Source: a phage
Strand: one strand, 5' to 3'
Sequence record: NC_129898.1
Length of the DNA: 64,000 nt
The notes below the pieces were generated by a model that saw only the letters and a program-made list of their open reading frames with translations, was not told where the DNA came from and did not search any database. The position numbers and the translations under genes were made by a program. This document shows, in pieces, positions 37,732 to 62,795 of the stretch; the first letter of the stretch is position 1, and each line of letters opens with the position of its first letter.

Positions 37732-40155
37732 ATGAGTATGTGGTCTTTCGATCTGGAGGCCTCTGGCTTGCTGGAAGATCCAGATCTTTATTATCACTGC
37801 GGTTTGTTTAAAGAGCTGAATAAGAACCGTTTTATGCTGTTCCTTCCTCTAAATGACCGCACACACTACTCGGAAGAGGATGTAGAGAAGGCTAAGAACT
37901 TTATTCTGGCAAAGAGAACTCTTTATAAAGATTTTGAGGTTCGCATAGCAGATTTTTCAGAGTTGGAAGGTTGGCTTACAGGCAACTCAGACTGGTCACC
38001 TACGGCTTTGAACTGTCATAACTGCTACAGCTATGACTTTATGCTGATGGAAAGATTATCCGGTGTTCATTTTGATATGTTCCGTGATCCTAAATGTATG
38101 GGGACTATTAACGACCACCAGGTTAATCTGTTTGATACGTTGGCGATGAGTCGAATCTTGTGGCCTGACCGCCCTTTGCCAAAAGGTTGTCCGGACGCAG
38201 TATTCAATCCAGTTACCAAGAAAATGCAGCCTGTTGGGCCTCATGGCCTTATGGCATGGGGCTATGCCCTTGGTAACCAGAAAGTTCAAATCGATGACTG
38301 GCGTGAGCTTCCGCTGTGGAAGTATGTGGATCGTGTGTTCGAGGACGTTATCATCCAGGAGTTGCTCTGGAAAGAGTTGGTAGCGGAATCAAAAGGTGTA
38401 TTCTACGGCAAATCTGACATGCAGAACTTTATGTATGACCCTGCCAAAGAGAAGCCTAAAGGATTCAAGAAGATTACCTGGAAGAATGCATTACGCCGAG
38501 GCATGCTGCAGCATTTCCTGATGGAGCTGCAGGCTCGACAGGGTGTGTATTTCGACATAGATGGGGCTATTGCTTTACGTGACCGCTGCGATGCGTGGAT
38601 GAAAGAGATCGCTGATCGTGTTGAACCACAACTTCCTTTAAAAGAGTTATCAATGTCTCAGCGGCCTAAGTTCCCTGAAAAGCCGTTTAACCAGGATGGG
38701 ACAATCTCCAATAATGGTTGGAAATGGTTAAAAGACAAGCTTGGCTATCCTGTGGATATGAGCGCTTTAGAGTTCAAAGCTCCTCCTAAGCGAGCATTTA
38801 CCTCCACAGGGGATGTCAGTAAAATGGGGATAAAATGGTGTGAAGAGATGGGCTGTAAAGACCCAGATAAGATGGCTGATTTCTTGAGAGGGTATATCAA
38901 AGGAACTTCTACACCACACCCTTTACCTAAAGAGCTAATGGATCAGGCAATAAGTGACCTACAGCAGAAGCGAATGCCTGACTGCAAGATACCTATGAAA
39001 ATCAGCAATCAGGACGACATCAAGCGATACCTGATCAGTGCTGGTTGGCTCCCAACAATGTGGAGAACTAAGGATGTAACTAAAGACAGCAAGAAGAAAG
39101 CTCTGCCTGATGCTGATGTTGATGCACGAGTATATGCATATATGGACGAGCTTTTAGAGTCAGAGTATTGTGACCTAATTATCAACTTCTGGAACAAAAC
39201 TGATGCTAAGTTTCAGACAACCGTGCACAAGTTCCGAAGCTTCCCTAACTCAGAAAGGATTAAAAAGGAAGTGTTTGGGAAGATACGTAGAAAAGCCAGA
39301 GCGCTTATTACTTCTCCGCAACTGAAAGATACGTTTGGACACCTATGTCCGAATCTTGAAAAGTTGAACGGAGAGATGGCTAAAGATATCGTCTTGTGGT
39401 TATCCTTGCGAAACCGTAGATCGGTCCTTGATCCAATCAAGGAGGATAAGGTTGATACTGGTCTTCTTAATCATCCACGTTTGAAGATTGACCATAAGCT
39501 TCCTGCTAAAAGTTCTGGATTAACAAACACTTCCAGACAGAAACACAGCATTTGTGCAAACATGCCTAAACCATCTCCTAAAGTGGTTATGGGTAAAGAG
39601 ATGCGTAGTCTGTGGGGTGTTCCTCCAGGATACTTTGAGATCGGTATTGACGGGTCCAACTTAGAGCAGCTTATCGGGGCTTGGGGTGCCTTTGAGTTCG
39701 ACAACGGCCTGTACTATGATGTTGTAAGTAACGGGGACGCGCACCAAAACAATGCTGAGGCATATACAAAGGTAGCAGGTAGGGAGGTGTCTCGTAACGA
39801 TGGTAAACCTATCACGTATGGGGTTATGTATGGGGCACAAAAAGATAAAGTTGCAGATATGCTGGATATCTCTCCAGAGCTGGGGCAGAGAGTAATCGAT
39901 GCTCTCTGGGATGCCAACCCAGGCCTTAAGGGGCGTAAAGAGGATCTGGAGAAATTCTGGGAAGCAACAGGTAAGAAATTTATCTACTCTTTTGACGGTC
40001 ATGCCATTTGGACCCGCTCTAAACACTCTTTGCTTAATGCATATCAGCAAAATGGCGGTGCATCGTTGTGCGACTTGGTCGGAATCCTCATGCACCACCA
40101 AATGGTGAAGCGTGGATGGTATGATGAGGGTGTTCGTCGTATTATTTATTACCAT
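37732..40155 (+). CDS. family A DNA polymerase, exon 1 (3'-5' exonuclease and most of polymerase domain)
   Basis: Exo I motif FDLEASGL; motif A-like IGIDGSNLEQL; motif B RNDGKPITYGVMYG; frame as annotated stops 1 codon after the proposed splice site, before motif C. Confidence 0.8.
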
Positions 40156-40483
40156 AAATAACATTGTGGCTTCGTGCAGTGATGCACGTCGAAAACCTCT
40201 TTAATTGACGGGAAGGCTAAGTTGACTTTTACACCTAAACATGGTAAAAGCTCAATATGCTAATCCGCAGCGAAGCATCCGAGAGGATGAACGTTCAGAG
40301 ACTATCGAAAGCATAGCTCCAACACAGTTTGGGGTGAAGAAGCGAGTAGAGTAGGCCAGCAAGTGCGGTCGAAATGAGAGGTGCCTTGGTAACAAGGCAG
40401 TGAGATAGTCCGATCCATACGGGAAACTGTATGGCTATGCACGTAATGGTGCGGGGTAGCTTAACGACCTACCTGAACTATTG
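40156..40483 (+). ncRNA. group I self-splicing intron in the DNA polymerase gene, no internal ORF
   Basis: Conserved core elements P (aattgacgggaagg 40203), Q (aatccgcagc 40262), R (gttcagagactatc 40303), S (gagatagtccg 40402); 5' exon ends in U, intron ends in G; guide-like gtgg at 40167 pairs with exon end ccau. Confidence 0.7.
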
Positions 40484-49454: not shown

Positions 49455-50082
49455 AGACAGAAAAGTATGTGGTCGTGGAGTAAACGATTTAAAAGACAAA
49501 GTCCCAATGTACCAATCTGTTAATGGTAAGAGAGTACCAGAACCCCACTATGCTACATGGAAAGCATTATTCCAGAGGTGCTACGGCGATAACTCAAAGT
49601 ACCATACAGGTTGTGAAGTTGTAGAAGATTGGTGGTTGTTCTCAGAATTCTGGAAATGGATGGATACACAAGAGTGGAAAAGAGACGCTAAGAAGTTCAC
49701 TCTTGACAAAGATCTGAAAATCCCTGGAAACAGAATATACTCCCCAGAAACATGCATGTTTGTTCCACCACAAATAAACACCCTATTTGGCATAAGACAG
49801 GCAGCACGAGGGGATTTACCTTTGGGTGTGACACTTAGAAAAGATGTAAACAAGTATCTCGTGCATTGTCATCGAGATGGAAAAATTGTTCATGGCGGTC
49901 ATTTCGATGATCCACAGACAGCACACAAGGTGTGGCAAGAAATGAAACTTGAGGAGATGAAACTTCAGGCTATTAAAAACAAAGATGAGATTTGGCTGTT
50001 CGCCATTAAACGTGCAATAACTATCCTTGAGAATGATTTGAAAAATAATAAGGAGACTATAACATTGGTGAAATTTATTTAA
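49438..50082 (+). CDS. AP2-domain protein, putative HNH-AP2 homing endonuclease
   Basis: ATG 49438; C-terminal GVTLRKDVNKYLVHCHRDGKIVHGGHFDDPQTAHKVW resembles the AP2 DNA-binding domain; N-terminal W..F..RCY...GC.V...W.FSEFWKWM motif. Confidence 0.5.
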   Translation: MGIPVKDRKVCGRGVNDLKDKVPMYQSVNGKRVPEPHYATWKALFQRCYGDNSKYHTGCEVVEDWWLFSEFWKWMDTQEWKRDAKKFTLDKDLKIPGNRIYSPETCMFVPPQINTLFGIRQAARGDLPLGVTLRKDVNKYLVHCHRDGKIVHGGHFDDPQTAHKVWQEMKLEEMKLQAIKNKDEIWLFAIKRAITILENDLKNNKETITLVKFI

Positions 50083-50411
50083 GATATTTATGGTAGTATT
50101 TATTTTAAAATTATAAAAATTTTAGGCGATGAGGGAAAATATGTAATGGATTTTCCCTTATTTATCAGATATTTGCAGATATTTGGAAATCCTTAGAAAA
50201 TCAGAAAATGGATCGAAAACTAAAATGGATTTTTTCAAGACAGGCACGATAAGCTGCGCTGCTCATTCTATCGTTCGCACCGTACTTCAAATCACCATTC
50301 CAGATTTTCCGCACATACTCTCACCCCTCTGCCAGAACTTTCCCAACTTACCTTCAGCCTTTTATGACAATAAGTTAATTATTATCAGTAAGTTTTGATA
50401 CATCTCTCTCA

Positions 50412-59599: not shown

Positions 59600-59863
59600 A
59601 TGAAACGCCTTGATCAGCTCAAACTAGTTCAGTACATGGCCTACAAAGTTATTGAAGTCCAAAAAGGTAGTAAAAAGGAGGTTTGCGAGAAAGCGTACAA
59701 GATCTTTACTCGTAAAAAAGATGATTGGATGTTGCGCCAGACCAAAAAGGCTGATATCCTGGGGTACCTGGAAGAAGAGATCCGGCTTGAAGAGCAAGAA
59801 GAGATCCGCCGAAGTGAGGCAGATTATCAGGCAGCTTGGGAAAGCTGGATGAGCAACAAATAG
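59600..59863 (+). CDS. hypothetical protein
   Basis: ATG 59600 after RBS AAAGAGGA (track begins at 59516). Confidence 0.5.
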   Translation: MKRLDQLKLVQYMAYKVIEVQKGSKKEVCEKAYKIFTRKKDDWMLRQTKKADILGYLEEEIRLEEQEEIRRSEADYQAAWESWMSNK

Positions 59864-59875
59864 TACAACATTATC

Positions 59876-59910
59876 AAGGGGCCTTAAGGCCCCTTTCTTT
59901 TTTGTTTTCT
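59876..59910. terminator. rho-independent terminator ending the plus-strand early block
   Basis: Hairpin aaggggcc-ttaa-ggcccctt followed by tcttttttgtttt. Confidence 0.7.
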
Positions 59911-60510
59911 CTTTTCCTACCATAAACGGCCCCGCCTGGCAAGTGGAATAATTAACGAGCCATCAATCCCGCACACTGTACAAATATACATGTAAAATAG
60001 TTATTGCATAACCTTTCATTGTGTGGTAGCGGTGCTATTTTTACCTGTTTTCTCTCCCAAAATTGCACGTAATGCAGCTATTGCACAAAATTTAACCTGA
60101 TGCACATCTTCAGTATACTGTCAACAATTAAAAACCCTTATAAGTCATACACTTACACAAACCAAAAAGCGCGTCCTACGTGAAAAATCGGGTGTAACTA
60201 TAGCCGACAGATCTCAGAATCCACGTACGATCACCATTCTATAGCCTGCAAAGTATTTATTCCAACCACAGAATAACGGAATAGTCAATACCTGTACAAA
60301 ATAATTATTCGTACAAACTGCATAACATAAACCTGCCCAGGTGTCAACATTTTTCGTAAACAGTTAGAAATTGTCACGATAGGTTACTATAATCAGAGAA
60401 ATATTTAGTCGTCTAATGTTTACTGTACATAACTATACTGACTGGAATCATTAGATGACTAAGAGAAAGATAAGAAATAGTTAACAATGTAATTGTTTTA
60501 CCTGTAACAA

Positions 60511-60707
60511 TAAGGCAACTATGCAAACGAATGGCATGGCGCGACGGAGTCGCGACATAATATAAAAGCAGTAACAATCACCCCCGTGATAGTTTGTCTG
60601 CAATCTATTAATCAGATCATAGTTGCCTTGTATTTAGTTAATCATGACATAACAAGCAAGGCAACTATAGATCTTCTAATAGTTGCCCTGCTTTTATATT
60701 ATGTCAT
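60511..60707. repeat. nested inverted repeats (18-bp gacataatataaaagcag pair; 12-bp atagttgccttg pair) in the non-coding region
   Basis: Perfect 18-bp inverted repeat at 60555-60572 and 60690-60707 encloses a 12-bp inverted repeat pair (60620 and 60656); related copies at 60513 and 60678. Confidence 0.8.
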
Positions 60708-60761
60708 AGAAACGCCCGAAGGGGTGACCTAGTCACCTGGCATAGCCAGCGAAATATTATT

Positions 60762-60824
60762 AACTTGTTAATTGTCAGCTTGTTGGCTGTTAGCTTGTCA
60801 ATTGTTAACTTGCTAATTGTTAAA
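60762..60824. repeat. four tandem copies of a 15-bp unit (agcttgtYaattgtt)
   Basis: acttgttaattgtc agcttgttggctgtt agcttgtcaattgtt aacttgctaattgtt read directly. Confidence 0.8.
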
Positions 60825-62459
60825 CTCGGGAGCATAGCCCTCGTCTCAAGGGTGTTATCATGCAAACGAATGTCATGGCTTATCATCTATGCGTAAACTG
60901 TCAGGGTGTAGACTATTCAGGCGTAAACAGTCTATGCGGGAACAATCTATACGTGAACAGTGAAATATGAAATAATAACAGTCGTTATTGTATCGAAAGT
61001 GTATAAGGTGTCAGATTATGGCATATTGTGTGACATTGTGTCAGACAAGTTTTTCTCCTCTTTGTCAAGTGCTGCATGGAAAATTTACAATCTGGTATGG
61101 TAGCATTTTTGCGGCCCTGTTTACATTCAGGAGTGTATGTATAACCCTTGTTGTGTGGGCGTTTAGACGTCTGGACGGTCAGAAGTCTGCAGGTTAATAT
61201 CTAATCTATTGGTCGCTAACTATATCCCCCACAAATAATAAGAAATGCAATTGTTATATGCGTAAACAGTAACTCATGTTATCAATCCCTGTATGTATCG
61301 CCAGTGGTGCGCATAATGGGTATTATGTTAAATTGCCCGTAATGATAACAGTTCTCACAATGATAGGTATTCTCATTCACCCCCACAAAATAGATTGCAA
61401 ATGTTGTGCCACTGTGTGAACGGCCTCGCCTATTAATTTGCCTCACTGCTCCGATATTTGAGAATTGTTATAAGAATGAGAAGTATTCCCATTTCGTCCG
61501 CCTGGCAGCGCTCCTGTAGGTCAGGTCAAAATCGTGGTAGAACTGGACCCCTTCAGATATTTCTAGCTGACTCTTCAGGCCTGTGTGGGAAAAGCCAACC
61601 TCTCCGGCGGGGCAGGGGGGTCAATTAAAAAATTTACGTAGGGTACGAAGCGCTCTTCAGGTAAGGCATGTATTAGAGGATGAAACCCTCTTCAGGTGAT
61701 GATATTTGTGGGTGTGATATTTGCTGGAAAGCCAGATATGACGGGACTACCGGCGGGGATGGGGTAGTATAGGCAGGGAAAATGTGGAGAATGTGGTTGG
61801 TAAATTTATCAGGCAGGTAGAGTATGGGATATGTTACAGGTATGTTAAATATGGAGGTAGGATATTTGTAAGATTTGTGTGTAAAATCAAAGACTTAAGT
61901 GGTGTTGTGGTATTTTCTATAAATAATTCAAGTTTAATAGGTAATATTTGTCTCTATCCACTTTGTGGGGTAAACAGATTCTAATTGAATTGGTTTACAA
62001 GTGTATATAAAGTATACAAATTAAAGATATAAGAAACCCCCCTCCCCCTTCGGCTACCATTCACCTTTTCCTCTGACTGGTACTTAAACACTTATTCAGA
62101 CTCTTCAGGTTATCACCCATATACTATATGGCAGTGACTGGTGTCCTCTGGCCCCTCTTTCGTCACCCGTCCGCTTCGCCATGCTAATGCCATAGCTAAA
62201 GGTTCGGTTGTTCACCCTGTTCACTCAGGTGTATCTCCATACCCCTTCAAACCGAAGAGAACAGAAAACCCGAATTACTCGGTAAAAGAAAAGAGAAGAA
62301 CTTAATTTTATCAGGATAGGCAAGAATGTCAAGGCATGACTGCTCACTAAACAAGCAAACAGTCATGTGTGGGAGGTAAGTGATTGTGGTGGTAGGAAAT
62401 TTAGTTGAAAGATGTGTTATAGGTGCTTCCAGCACTTTAGCCGGGCAGCTAATTGTGTG

Positions 62460-62675
62460 TCAGTCCAGCGGTTCATCCTCTACTTCACTGAAATCGATGT
62501 TCAGGGTCTCTTCCCAACCATCGATCTCAGCACAAGAGTGGAGTTCTTTAGGGTTTACTCCCAAAGCCTCAGCAACAGCGTCTATATTTAACACCTCTGG
62601 CAGGTATGATTCATCAAATTCAAGGTAAATCAGGCCACGAGTGTTGTCAGCTCCACCAAATATTTCTATCTTCAT
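62460..62675 (-). CDS. hypothetical acidic protein
   Basis: 71-aa ORF, first gene of a minus-strand block. Confidence 0.5.
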   Translation of the reverse strand: MKIEIFGGADNTRGLIYLEFDESYLPEVLNIDAVAEALGVNPKELHSCAEIDGWEETLNIDFSEVEDEPLD

Positions 62676-62795
62676 AAAATCTCCTCTGGAAATGAGAGTG
62701 TGAACAGGGTTATACGTTCCAATGCGCAGGAATTTATATACGTTTGCCTCTTCAGGCCATGCTTTAGCATGATAAACTTATGTGGGCTCGGTGCT

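Follow-up and report, generated by a model that had tools for sequence, protein, structure and literature searches.

A gene-free, repeat-rich interval of a Vequintavirus genome is very probably its joined genome-end region, carrying one collapsed copy of a 459-bp terminal repeat

In the T7 genome record, the 160-bp terminal repeat gives way directly to an array of CCTAAAG motifs with a 13-bp period (174-340), and an outward-facing E. coli promoter, A0, lies at 224, phiOL at 405 and phiOR near the right repeat. The "O" in phiOL and phiOR stands for origin, and the role of the T7 array is itself unsettled. Arrays of short repeats serve as recognition sites for the small subunit of terminase, as with the R sites of lambda cosB, SPP1 pacL/pacR and the P1 pac hexamers, and in T5 a non-coding region of repeats and palindromes adjoining the terminal repeat, which is about 10 kb long and carries the pre-early genes, is the injection-stop region. 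Pausing of T7 RNA polymerase at the concatemer junction has been linked to packaging (PMC3276506).

For phages related to rV5 the literature provides the length of a terminal repeat: EdH4 and HdK5 were described with a 458-bp terminal redundancy (Korf 2019, PMC6563267), and Gotham with terminal repeats of 459 bp and a start sequence that is identical in all virions (Dias 2020, PMC7471380). That the genus has a direct terminal repeat (DTR) was therefore known beforehand from close relatives, and in this respect our core finding is already known. The rV5 paper draws the region considered here as a box labelled "non-coding". In the literature that we searched, we found the repeat length but no link to that box and no description of flanking arrays, and likewise no mention of phased variable arrays, an indel hotspot, a 327-bp promoter-bearing block, an extreme C-rich block or a dyad deletion in the phage FV3.

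The window that we analysed comprises 64,000 nucleotides of phage DNA (NC_129898.1). Within it, the interval 59864-62459 contains no genes, is denser in repeats than expected by chance and is flanked by convergent operons, with the plus-strand ORF ending at 59863 and the minus-strand ORF at 62460; both flanking ORFs show third-codon-position bias and match PHROG families. An earlier note, made from the letters alone, had singled out this stretch as gene-free, lying between convergent operons and dense in repeats of several families. All of this is borne out: the ORFs inside the interval have neither codon-position bias nor a PHROG match, the repeats lie within 1-5 bases of the positions first given for them, and 15 different 8-mers occur at least three times in the interval as compared to 1.97 +/- 1.54 in shuffled sequence (for 10-mers, 2 as compared to 0).

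The same region is present in 121 GenBank phage records, at 86-95% identity across the entire interval. Every matching record whose taxonomy we checked belongs to the genus Vequintavirus, and outside this genus no record matched either the interval as a whole or its most conserved block (62034-62360). Judged by its sequence, the source phage is a Vequintavirus, that is, an rV5-like E. coli myovirus. The rV5 locus is orthologous and has the same convergent neighbours (ORF163 on one side, ORF164/165 on the other), except that the window phage, unlike rV5, lacks ORF164; this 420-bp ORF is present as an insert at the left edge of the 59906-60520 arm in 12 of 18 relatives. Looking for host-derived DNA in 5,426 E. 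coli genomes, we found only chance-level matches of 40-50 bp to the region; there are no paralogues of it elsewhere in the 64-kb window, and a scan for tRNA and tmRNA genes returned none. In Mydovirus and Seunavirus, where a nearby conserved regulator served as the anchor for synteny, the regulator lies within a long co-directional gene block and the junction is absent nearby. The pattern of conservation described below is that in 18 relatives.

We suggest that the interval is very probably the genome-end region of a Vequintavirus in its joined form, with one collapsed copy of a 459-bp DTR and packaging of the T7 type. This is the form that the DNA takes in concatemers during replication, and that assemblies show when they collapse both end copies. 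Three lines of evidence, taken together, lead to this reading. First, the HdK5 record (MK373780) has an exact 459-bp repeat at both of its ends, which corresponds to window positions 61502-61044 and is 93% identical to them. Second, independent records share the same cuts: those of ECP2303 and EcoIv14a_Aya are linearised at 61043/61044, and those of bov10K2 and bov22_2, which had been processed with PhageTerm, at 61502/61503. Third, there are the repeats of 458 and 459 bp reported in the two papers cited above. As the window holds a single collapsed copy, the presence of the repeat at both ends rests on homology for the present phage. A scan of IMG/VR with a pattern built on the DTR boundaries returned one contig only. 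Of the interpretations offered by the earlier note, that of a genome terminus with a terminal repeat, or a packaging region, thus stands, whereas its lead reading, a replication origin, is unlikely (see below).

It could be objected that the region is instead the headful (pac) site of a circularly permuted genome without any fixed terminus. The rV5 paper does call the genome circularly permuted, one PhageTerm run on a Vequintavirus (in a 2026 paper) gave "headful" as its result, and GenBank records begin at many different positions. We nevertheless regard this as very improbable. Beside the exact repeat on both HdK5 ends, three further record sets are cut at the same two boundaries and Gotham is reported with a single start in all virions, while the statement about rV5 was based on 3.6-fold Sanger coverage without end mapping. 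Arbitrary record starts, for their part, are normal for collapsed assemblies.

Along the plus strand, the joined genome-end region would be composed of the following features:

59876-59905, plus strand: intrinsic terminator, an 8-bp G+C stem followed by a T-run, ending the plus-strand operon
59906-60520: conserved non-coding arm with one fixed iteron copy at 60355-60364
60505-60705: dyad module of nested inverted repeats, DNA fold z-score -8.7
60521-60540 and 60860-60879, plus strand: 20-nt direct repeats ATGCAAACGAATGKCATGGC, 19/20 identical, bounding the segment 60521-60879
60756-60823, plus strand: 15-bp tandem array with a 7/8-bp sub-period, 4.5 copies, TRF score 73
60886-60961, plus strand: GTRAACWGT iterons, an array of three with 30-bp spacing
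60995-61043, minus strand: GACAY array with 9-11-bp phasing, abutting the DTR boundary
61044-61502: DTR, one collapsed copy of 459 bp, assigned from homology, boundaries and conservation
61503-61560: conserved 15-bp outer flank TGGCAGCGCTCCTGT, then a variable patch to about 61552
61571-61696, plus strand: CTCTTCAGG, three copies at 61571, 61653 and 61688, 69-186 bp outside the DTR
61704-61943, minus strand: strand-asymmetric block, C-rich and G-poor as minus-strand RNA, C/G 3.4-9.3 per 80 nt
62034-62360: near-invariant block of 327 bp, 4.9% of columns variable
62305-62332, minus strand: predicted near-consensus sigma-70 promoter, TTGACA-N16-TGATAAAAT, pointing toward the DTR
62335-62367: inverted repeat with perfect 8-bp arms, CATGACTG-N17-CAGTCATG, immediately upstream of the -35 hexamer

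The DTR is 459 bp long in 16 of the 18 relatives, with gaps in 3 of 460 alignment columns. Among these relatives, the boundary sequences are invariant and the DNA directly beyond both boundaries is rich in indels. On the left, conservation starts about 5 bp outside the boundary, at 61039; on the right, it runs about 15 bp past the boundary until an indel hotspot between 61517 and 61518, 15 bp beyond the DTR, where relatives carry inserts of 0-80 bp. One GTRAACWGT iteron lies inside the repeat (61262-61270). We also considered a promoter-like site on the plus strand within the DTR (61062-61091) but dropped it, since about half of the relatives show variation in the -10 hexamer.

How might ends be formed at such a junction? 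Concatemers would contain one DTR between successive genomes; terminase would cut at TGTCA/GACAAG (61043/61044) and at CGTCCGCC/TGGCAG (61502/61503), and the second copy of the DTR would be regenerated through DNA synthesis. Virion DNA would then start at 61044, run rightward round the genome and finish at 61502. Given this path, each genome end would be followed inward by a non-coding arm, 61503-62459 at one end and 59864-61043 at the other. The likeliest loading sites for packaging or end-processing proteins would be the GACAY array, with its 10-bp phasing, and the GTRAACWGT iterons, which are phased at 15/30 bp.

Both arrays are confined to one side of the DTR and keep to one orientation. 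The iteron motif is found at 60356, 60893, 60923, 60953 and 61262, always on the plus strand, and these are five of its eight matches in the 64-kb window. Among relatives the iteron array has between 1 and 8 copies, at 15/30-bp spacing and in constant orientation, and the number of GACAY units ranges from 3 to 7, with 47 of about 100 spacings measuring 9-11 bp. The last GACAY unit falls within the conserved boundary sequence, TGTCA/GACAAG. In both arrays, then, copy number is variable and core sequence, orientation and phasing are kept. The 15-bp tandem array is absent or much shortened in about 80% of the aligned relatives; compared with them, the window phage has a longer tandem array and an iteron arrangement of its own.

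Further to the left, the terminator at 59876-59905 corresponds to t164 of rV5 (Table S4 of the rV5 paper). Beyond it, C exceeds G on the plus strand from 59906 to about 60340 (C/G 1.3-2.6 per 80 nt), and A+T content reaches 71-72% at 60344-60503. The dyad module that follows contains perfect inverted repeats, namely an 18-nt pair (60554-60571 and 60688-60705) and a 12-nt pair. ATAGTTGCCYTG occurs in it four times in alternating orientation (60511 minus, 60619 plus, 60657 minus, 60679 plus), within the perfect 18-nt inverted repeat; looking for this motif as an operator used elsewhere, we found no occurrence beyond the dyad module. The module is present in 17 relatives, with a mean identity to the window of 97.7%. 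FV3 lacks it: this phage carries a 339-bp deletion, with a single copy of ATGCAAACGAATGKCATGGC remaining at the junction, and since FV3 is viable the DNA between the ATGCAAACGAATGKCATGGC repeats must be dispensable. The dyad module is therefore highly conserved and yet deleted in a viable phage.

Might the region be, or contain, an origin of replication, as the earlier note had primarily proposed? Binding of an initiator to iterons or dyads could open the neighbouring A+T-rich DNA, or else a transcript could prime replication as in T7. The iterons in the same orientation, the conserved dyads, the A+T-rich stretch at 60344-60503 and a strong predicted promoter beside a strongly skewed tract would all be in keeping with such a function, as would the position of T7 phiOL and phiOR near the genome ends and the change in skew that the rV5 paper notes at the homologous coordinates 104425-105475. 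However, the authors of that paper attribute skew changes to changes in the direction of transcription. DnaA boxes are not clustered, with one match at one mismatch in the region, and no initiator-like gene is found in the flanks, where the genes encode small proteins of unknown function. Moreover, viable FV3 has lost both the dyad module and the tandem array, and the number of iterons varies from 1 to 8 across relatives. Beyond the repeats themselves, the proposal did not gain positive support, and we consider an origin unlikely. Chi sites are absent from the 64-kb window.

On the other side of the DTR, a fourth copy of CTCTTCAGG follows the first three at 62101-62109 and a fifth lies at 62748, all on the plus strand, where about 0.5 matches would be expected in the whole window. 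Seventeen of the 18 relatives keep all of the first four copies (61571, 61653, 61688, 62101), and the strand is the plus strand throughout. CCCCACAAA, by comparison, is found at 61227 and 61381, with a minus-strand copy at 61962, and has 0-1 copies in relatives; we rejected the pair as a meaningful repeat, as this lack of conservation suggests that it is probably not one.

The purine-rich, strand-asymmetric block that had likewise been pointed out is confirmed: GC skew reaches its maximum for the window, 0.47, in 61601-62000, and 3 C stand against 28 G in 61784-61863. Read from the minus strand, RNA across 61744-61943 is predicted to be almost unstructured, with a minimum free energy of about -1 to -6 kcal/mol per 120 nt. 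RNA that is C-rich, G-poor and nearly unstructured past the end of an operon is what characterises a rut-like tract, so that the block may be a Rho-loading-like tract for transcription arriving from the right, with a putative role for Rho. For minus-strand RNA of 62344-62423 C/G is 4.2, and for plus-strand RNA of 59864-60343 it is 1.3-2.6. In the proposed scheme, the convergent operons would be halted ahead of the junction, on the left by the intrinsic terminator at 59876-59905 and on both sides by tracts that resemble Rho loading sites, being rich in C when read in the direction of the arriving transcription.

Still further right, conservation is at its highest for the entire 5.5-kb alignment between the predicted promoter and about 62034: 4.9% of columns vary in the near-invariant block, as compared to 19% in ORF163 and 18.5% in the DTR. 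The packaging model does not explain this block, whose distance to the nearest cut site is 530-860 bp. The promoter at 62305-62332 is an 11/12 match with an extended -10 and a predicted start site at about 62298. Of the 19 aligned sequences, 15 share it without any change (in other words, 14 of the 18 relatives do), and 18 agree in the hexamers and the extended -10, the exception being EduardKellenberger, in which the 5' T of the TG is altered. It shares its -10 with the rV5 early promoter P074. The literature that we searched yielded no transcriptome data for the genus. The inverted repeat at 62335-62367 is possibly an operator or an end-of-operon hairpin. It is contained in the minus-strand RNA window 62304-62423, the sole window of the near-invariant block with excess structure (z -4.2).

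Two readings would place a gene in the conserved DNA. According to the first, annotators have missed small protein-coding genes. Short ORFs are indeed annotated within the interval in some records (HMD-6, NHEP1, Murica gp129 and a "structural protein" of APCEc02), and all 18 relatives have an intact plus-strand ORF at 62141-62305. Yet the annotated ORFs disagree between records, third-position bias is absent from every internal ORF and present in both flanking genes, none of seven internal ORFs has a PHROG match, and inspection revealed no convincing ribosome-binding sites. The intactness of an ORF in the near-invariant block follows from the fact that nothing varies there. Conserved protein-coding genes, one of the findings that according to the earlier note would refute its view, were looked for in the interval and none is supported; that any are hidden here strikes us as highly improbable.

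According to the second reading, the conserved parts are one or more genes for non-coding RNA, for example a minus-strand RNA of about 270 nt that runs from about 62298 over the near-invariant block. A conserved near-consensus promoter with no ORF behind it would make sense on this account, as would the exceptional conservation from the promoter to about 62034 in a block devoid of any coding signature. On the other hand, we found no relevant Rfam 15 family, either at the gathering score or at E-values up to 10 (the best E-value, 0.034, falls on the terminator hairpin, and the region has no match at the gathering score). The predicted fold of 62020-62300 is no stabler than shuffled sequence (z -1.1), with no significant 120-nt window, we found neither a clear intrinsic terminator nor homologues beyond the genus, and the invariance of the block leaves covariation nothing to work on. 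A non-coding RNA gene therefore seems doubtful to us.

Returning to the joined genome ends, the early-type host promoter (62332 to 62305) would fire across the arm toward the DTR, and a transcript crossing the junction could possibly be driven from it, as in T7. Homology, boundaries, the pattern of conservation and the motif statistics are observations, and the roles given to arrays, C-rich tracts and promoter are our interpretation. Taking these roles one step further, one might speculate that the junction is a transcription-coupled end-processing unit, in which host RNA polymerase would be sent from the near-invariant block through the C-rich arm into the DTR, and its passage would be coupled to the loading of terminase on both phased arrays, GACAY and GTRAACWGT, as well as to DTR duplication, as at the T7 junction. 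Alternatively, the 327-bp block might be an undescribed non-coding RNA or the origin used by this phage group. We offer these ideas as long shots. A unit of this kind would sit in a myovirus that apparently relies on host RNA polymerase.

Fixing the true genome ends aids the annotation of the approximately 121 Vequintavirus records and the choice of consistent start points for them, and should be of use in engineering these phages, which are widely used in therapy and biocontrol, and in reading coverage steps. It also links the "non-coding" box of rV5, a phage described as circularly permuted, with the later reports of 459-bp terminal repeats. While the region is largely explained and ordinary, representing no new kind of system, its fine anatomy supplies testable candidates for fixed-end formation in a large myovirus: the DTR has phased arrays of variable copy number to one side and an invariant block with a predicted promoter to the other, and the dyad module is dispensable in spite of its conservation.

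Compared with known systems, the region resembles that of T5 in being long, gene-free DNA, rich in repeats and palindromes, that is tied to a terminal repeat in a large lytic coliphage. We found no sequence similarity between T5 and the window, however, and know of no description of two-step DNA transfer for rV5-like phages. With cosB, pacL/pacR and P1 pac it shares multiple short repeats, in the same orientation or helically phased, beside a cut site. It differs from them in that binding to the arrays is a supposition for the window phage, and in that array copy number varies widely among close relatives, which would be unusual for an essential recognition site.

The closest analogue, by its layout, is the T7 concatemer junction. 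There is no sequence similarity between T7 or T3 and the window, and the window phage is a 137-kb myovirus for whose relative rV5 host RNA polymerase was assumed, in a paper that makes no mention of a phage RNA polymerase. In the window, the junction is approached by genes from either side, whereas those of T7 all point in one direction, and the arms are much longer here (about 1.2 and 1.0 kb). What the window has in common with T7 and T3 is a short exact DTR (160 bp in T7, 459 bp here), an array of short period that abuts the terminal repeat, gene-free DNA at one end (about 0.9 kb in T7), a host-type promoter that faces outward to the end (A0 in T7), and a promoter aimed at the other repeat (phiOR in T7). 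In T7, transcription of the junction is coupled to packaging (PMC3276506), and the promoter pointing toward the DTR suggests that the window phage may have a counterpart.

In published accounts of vequintaviruses, statements about the genome ends disagree. The rV5 genome paper calls the genome circularly permuted and marks the space between genes 163 and 164, which converge, with a grey box labelled "non-coding"; Korf et al. 2019 give a terminal redundancy of 458 bp for EdH4 and HdK5; Dias et al. 2020 describe 459-bp terminal repeats in Gotham, with an identical start sequence in all virions; and a 2026 paper reports a PhageTerm "headful" result for a Vequintavirus. In the HdK5 record, the first 459 bases are exactly the last 459 and align to window 61502-61044. 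The same two places recur as record ends: ECP2303 and EcoIv14a_Aya, from other laboratories, are cut between 61043 and 61044, and the PhageTerm-processed bov10K2 and bov22_2 between 61502 and 61503. Together with the published terminal repeats, these observations indicate that the gene-free, repeat-dense interval between the convergent operons (59864-62459) is the meeting point of two genome ends, the termini of this phage being assigned by homology. Of the three readings in an earlier note (origin, packaging site, genome terminus with terminal repeat), the exact repeat and shared cut points thus single out the last as right. Headful packaging, as the 2026 result and the rV5 statement would have it, is contradicted by that repeat and by boundaries common to independent records, and we regard it as very improbable. 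For this genus the core finding has been published before, as the rV5 box and the repeats of HdK5, EdH4 and Gotham; our literature search found no paper that joins the two, and none that covers the arrays flanking the repeat, the promoter-bearing invariant block or the deletion in FV3, all discussed below.

Principal features of the junction (window positions)
59876-59905, plus strand: good intrinsic terminator (rV5 t164), ending the plus-strand operon
Abutting 61044, read on the minus strand: GACAY units, 9-11 bp apart
61044-61502: direct terminal repeat (DTR), single collapsed copy, flanked by non-coding arms of 1.18 kb (left) and 0.96 kb (right)
62332 to 62305, minus strand: promoter-like site, TTGACA-N16-TGATAAAAT, the best of the region, inside the invariant block
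62460-62675, minus strand: rV5 ORF163, the minus-strand gene flanking the interval

The interval aligns across nearly its full length with 121 phage records at 86-95% identity, and those fetched are classified as Vequintavirus (rV5-like myoviruses, ~137 kb). No match outside the genus was found, loose thresholds included, and 5,426 E. coli genomes yielded chance-level matches of 40-50 bp only. Nineteen matching GenBank records (MG0656xx, e.g. loci L016 and L020) bear the name "Campylobacter phage"; the two fetched are both flagged UNVERIFIED and classified as Vequintavirus, and their full-length alignments with this region of an E. coli phage give ~86-88% identity; these genomes are probably mislabelled or contaminant. 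The window runs in reverse of the rV5 record, plus-strand genes left of 59863 being counterparts of rV5 genes up to 164/165. The non-coding arm has a presence/absence polymorphism at its edge: rV5 ORF164, which is 420 bp long and has a promoter of its own (P164), is present at the 59864-59913 site in 12 of 18 aligned relatives and missing in the window phage, HMD-6, Alma, A141, APCEc02 and FV3. Elsewhere in the window, a group I intron at 40146-40433 (75.6 bits to RF00028) overlaps a plus-strand ORF (37732-40161), starting ~15 bases before its end; the ORF matches family-A DNA polymerase only weakly (27.9 bits, where Pfam's cutoff is 34.3 bits) and, given the overlap, the polymerase gene appears to be split by the intron. 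The rV5 paper mentions introns for the terminase gene only.

That the interval lacks genes, as previously noted, is real. Both flanking genes show an excess of third-codon-position changes in the 18-relative alignment (9/4/28 for ORF163) and match PHROG families, whereas codon-position bias was seen in none of 23 internal ORFs (at least 30 aa) and a PHROG match in none of the seven tested. Small genes hidden inside the interval, where ORF annotations are inconsistent among relatives' records, are on these two counts highly unlikely. All the repeat families of the earlier note were recovered within a few bases of where it had placed them, and repeat density does exceed chance: 15 8-mers occur in at least three copies (1.97 +/- 1.54 in shuffled controls), as do two 10-mers (none in controls). 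The nested dyads (60505-60705) form a much more stable fold than shuffled sequences do (z -8.7), and the strand-asymmetric block is the window-wide maximum of GC skew. The CCCCACAAA duplication, present in the window, is not retained in relatives, and we set this one family aside.

Conservation was assessed by alignment with the 18 relatives, in which the non-coding DNA is overall about as conserved as the genes beside it. Sixteen of them have a DTR of 459 bp, and it is almost indel-free (3 gap columns in 460); the region's greatest variability lies immediately outside both its boundaries: 86% of alignment columns contain gaps in the 330 bp left of 61044, and an indel hotspot with inserts of 0-80 bp sits 15 bp right of 61502 (61517/61518). 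At the left boundary (TGTCA/GACAAG, the slash marking the cut) conservation starts ~5 bp outside the cut point; at the right (CGTCCGCC/TGGCAGCGCTCCTGT) it extends 15 bp past it, to the hotspot. Many relatives carry 20-80-bp cassettes there, between CCTGTAGGTC-like direct repeats; the cassettes may have arisen by duplication or represent a tiny mobile element.

The GACAY array comprises 3-7 units depending on the phage, 47 of ~100 spacings being 9-11 bp, and is followed by an array of the iteron GTRAACWGT (1-8 copies, 15- or 30-bp spacing). Copy number and unit order differ between close relatives, while core sequence, orientation and phasing are constant; single iteron copies are fixed at 60356 and, within the DTR, at 61262. 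On the DTR's other side, 17 of 18 relatives retain four plus-strand copies of CTCTTCAGG. Four copies of the 8-mer GATATTTG lie in or near the DTR (61453-61868), and it recurs in a 10-bp tandem (CAGATATTTG x2, 50166-50185) 84 bases past an ORF end at 50082; with 9 copies window-wide where 2.8 would be expected, it is a possible shared binding site for a protein.

The dyad module, one of two strongly conserved modules in the region (the other being the invariant block described below), has a mean identity to the window of 97.7%. FV3, a published viable phage, has a 339-bp deletion whose endpoints are the two copies of the 20-nt direct repeat ATGCAAACGAATGKCATGGC listed in the earlier note (window 60521-60879). 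Precisely one of these copies remains at the junction (locus L022, 2156-2175), so the deletion arose by recombination between them. Lost with it are the dyad module, the 15-bp tandem array, which is absent or shorter in ~80% of relatives, and a G+C hairpin. Judging from this deletion and the array's loss elsewhere, none of these elements can be essential for replication or packaging, the dyad module thus being conserved yet dispensable. An origin of replication in the interval is unlikely, given that FV3 shows some of the candidate DNA to be dispensable and that neither DnaA boxes nor a nearby initiator gene are found.

For the minus-strand operon the rV5 authors found no terminator, and we found a single weak candidate. 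RNA made from the right is predicted to be poor in G, very rich in C and almost without structure (C/G of 4.2 at 62344-62423, up to 9.3 across 61704-61943), and RNA read the opposite way through the left arm would be moderately C-rich; such tracts may be Rho-type insulators that exclude convergent transcription from the junction. In the invariant block (62034-62360, 327 bp) 4.9% of columns vary, about four times less than in ORF163 (19%). Its predicted promoter, directed toward the DTR, is identical in 15 of 19 aligned sequences, with hexamers and extended -10 unchanged in 18; the extended -10 is that of rV5 early promoter P074. The site is not in the rV5 promoter list, which covers gene-upstream DNA only. 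The DNA downstream of it holds no ORF, matches no Rfam family and shows no fold of unusual stability. A non-coding RNA made from the block is possible but unlikely, with no structural support from Rfam or folding; coding signal is likewise lacking, and the packaging model proposed below does not account for the near-invariance.

Because this anatomy parallels that of T7 ends, we propose T7-type packaging. Concatemers would carry one DTR per junction, terminase would cleave at both conserved boundaries with the repeat regenerated, the one-sided phased arrays would act as loading sites, and a junction-directed transcript from the conserved predicted promoter would possibly participate. The data support only where the repeat lies and how it is bounded; the remaining steps we infer from sequence. 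The T7 record, checked for this comparison, has a 160-bp repeat with a CCTAAAG array of 13-bp period directly behind it, an outward-facing E. coli promoter A0, and phiOL and phiOR near the ends; in T7, a pause of RNA polymerase at the concatemer junction reportedly engages the terminase proteins (PMC3276506).
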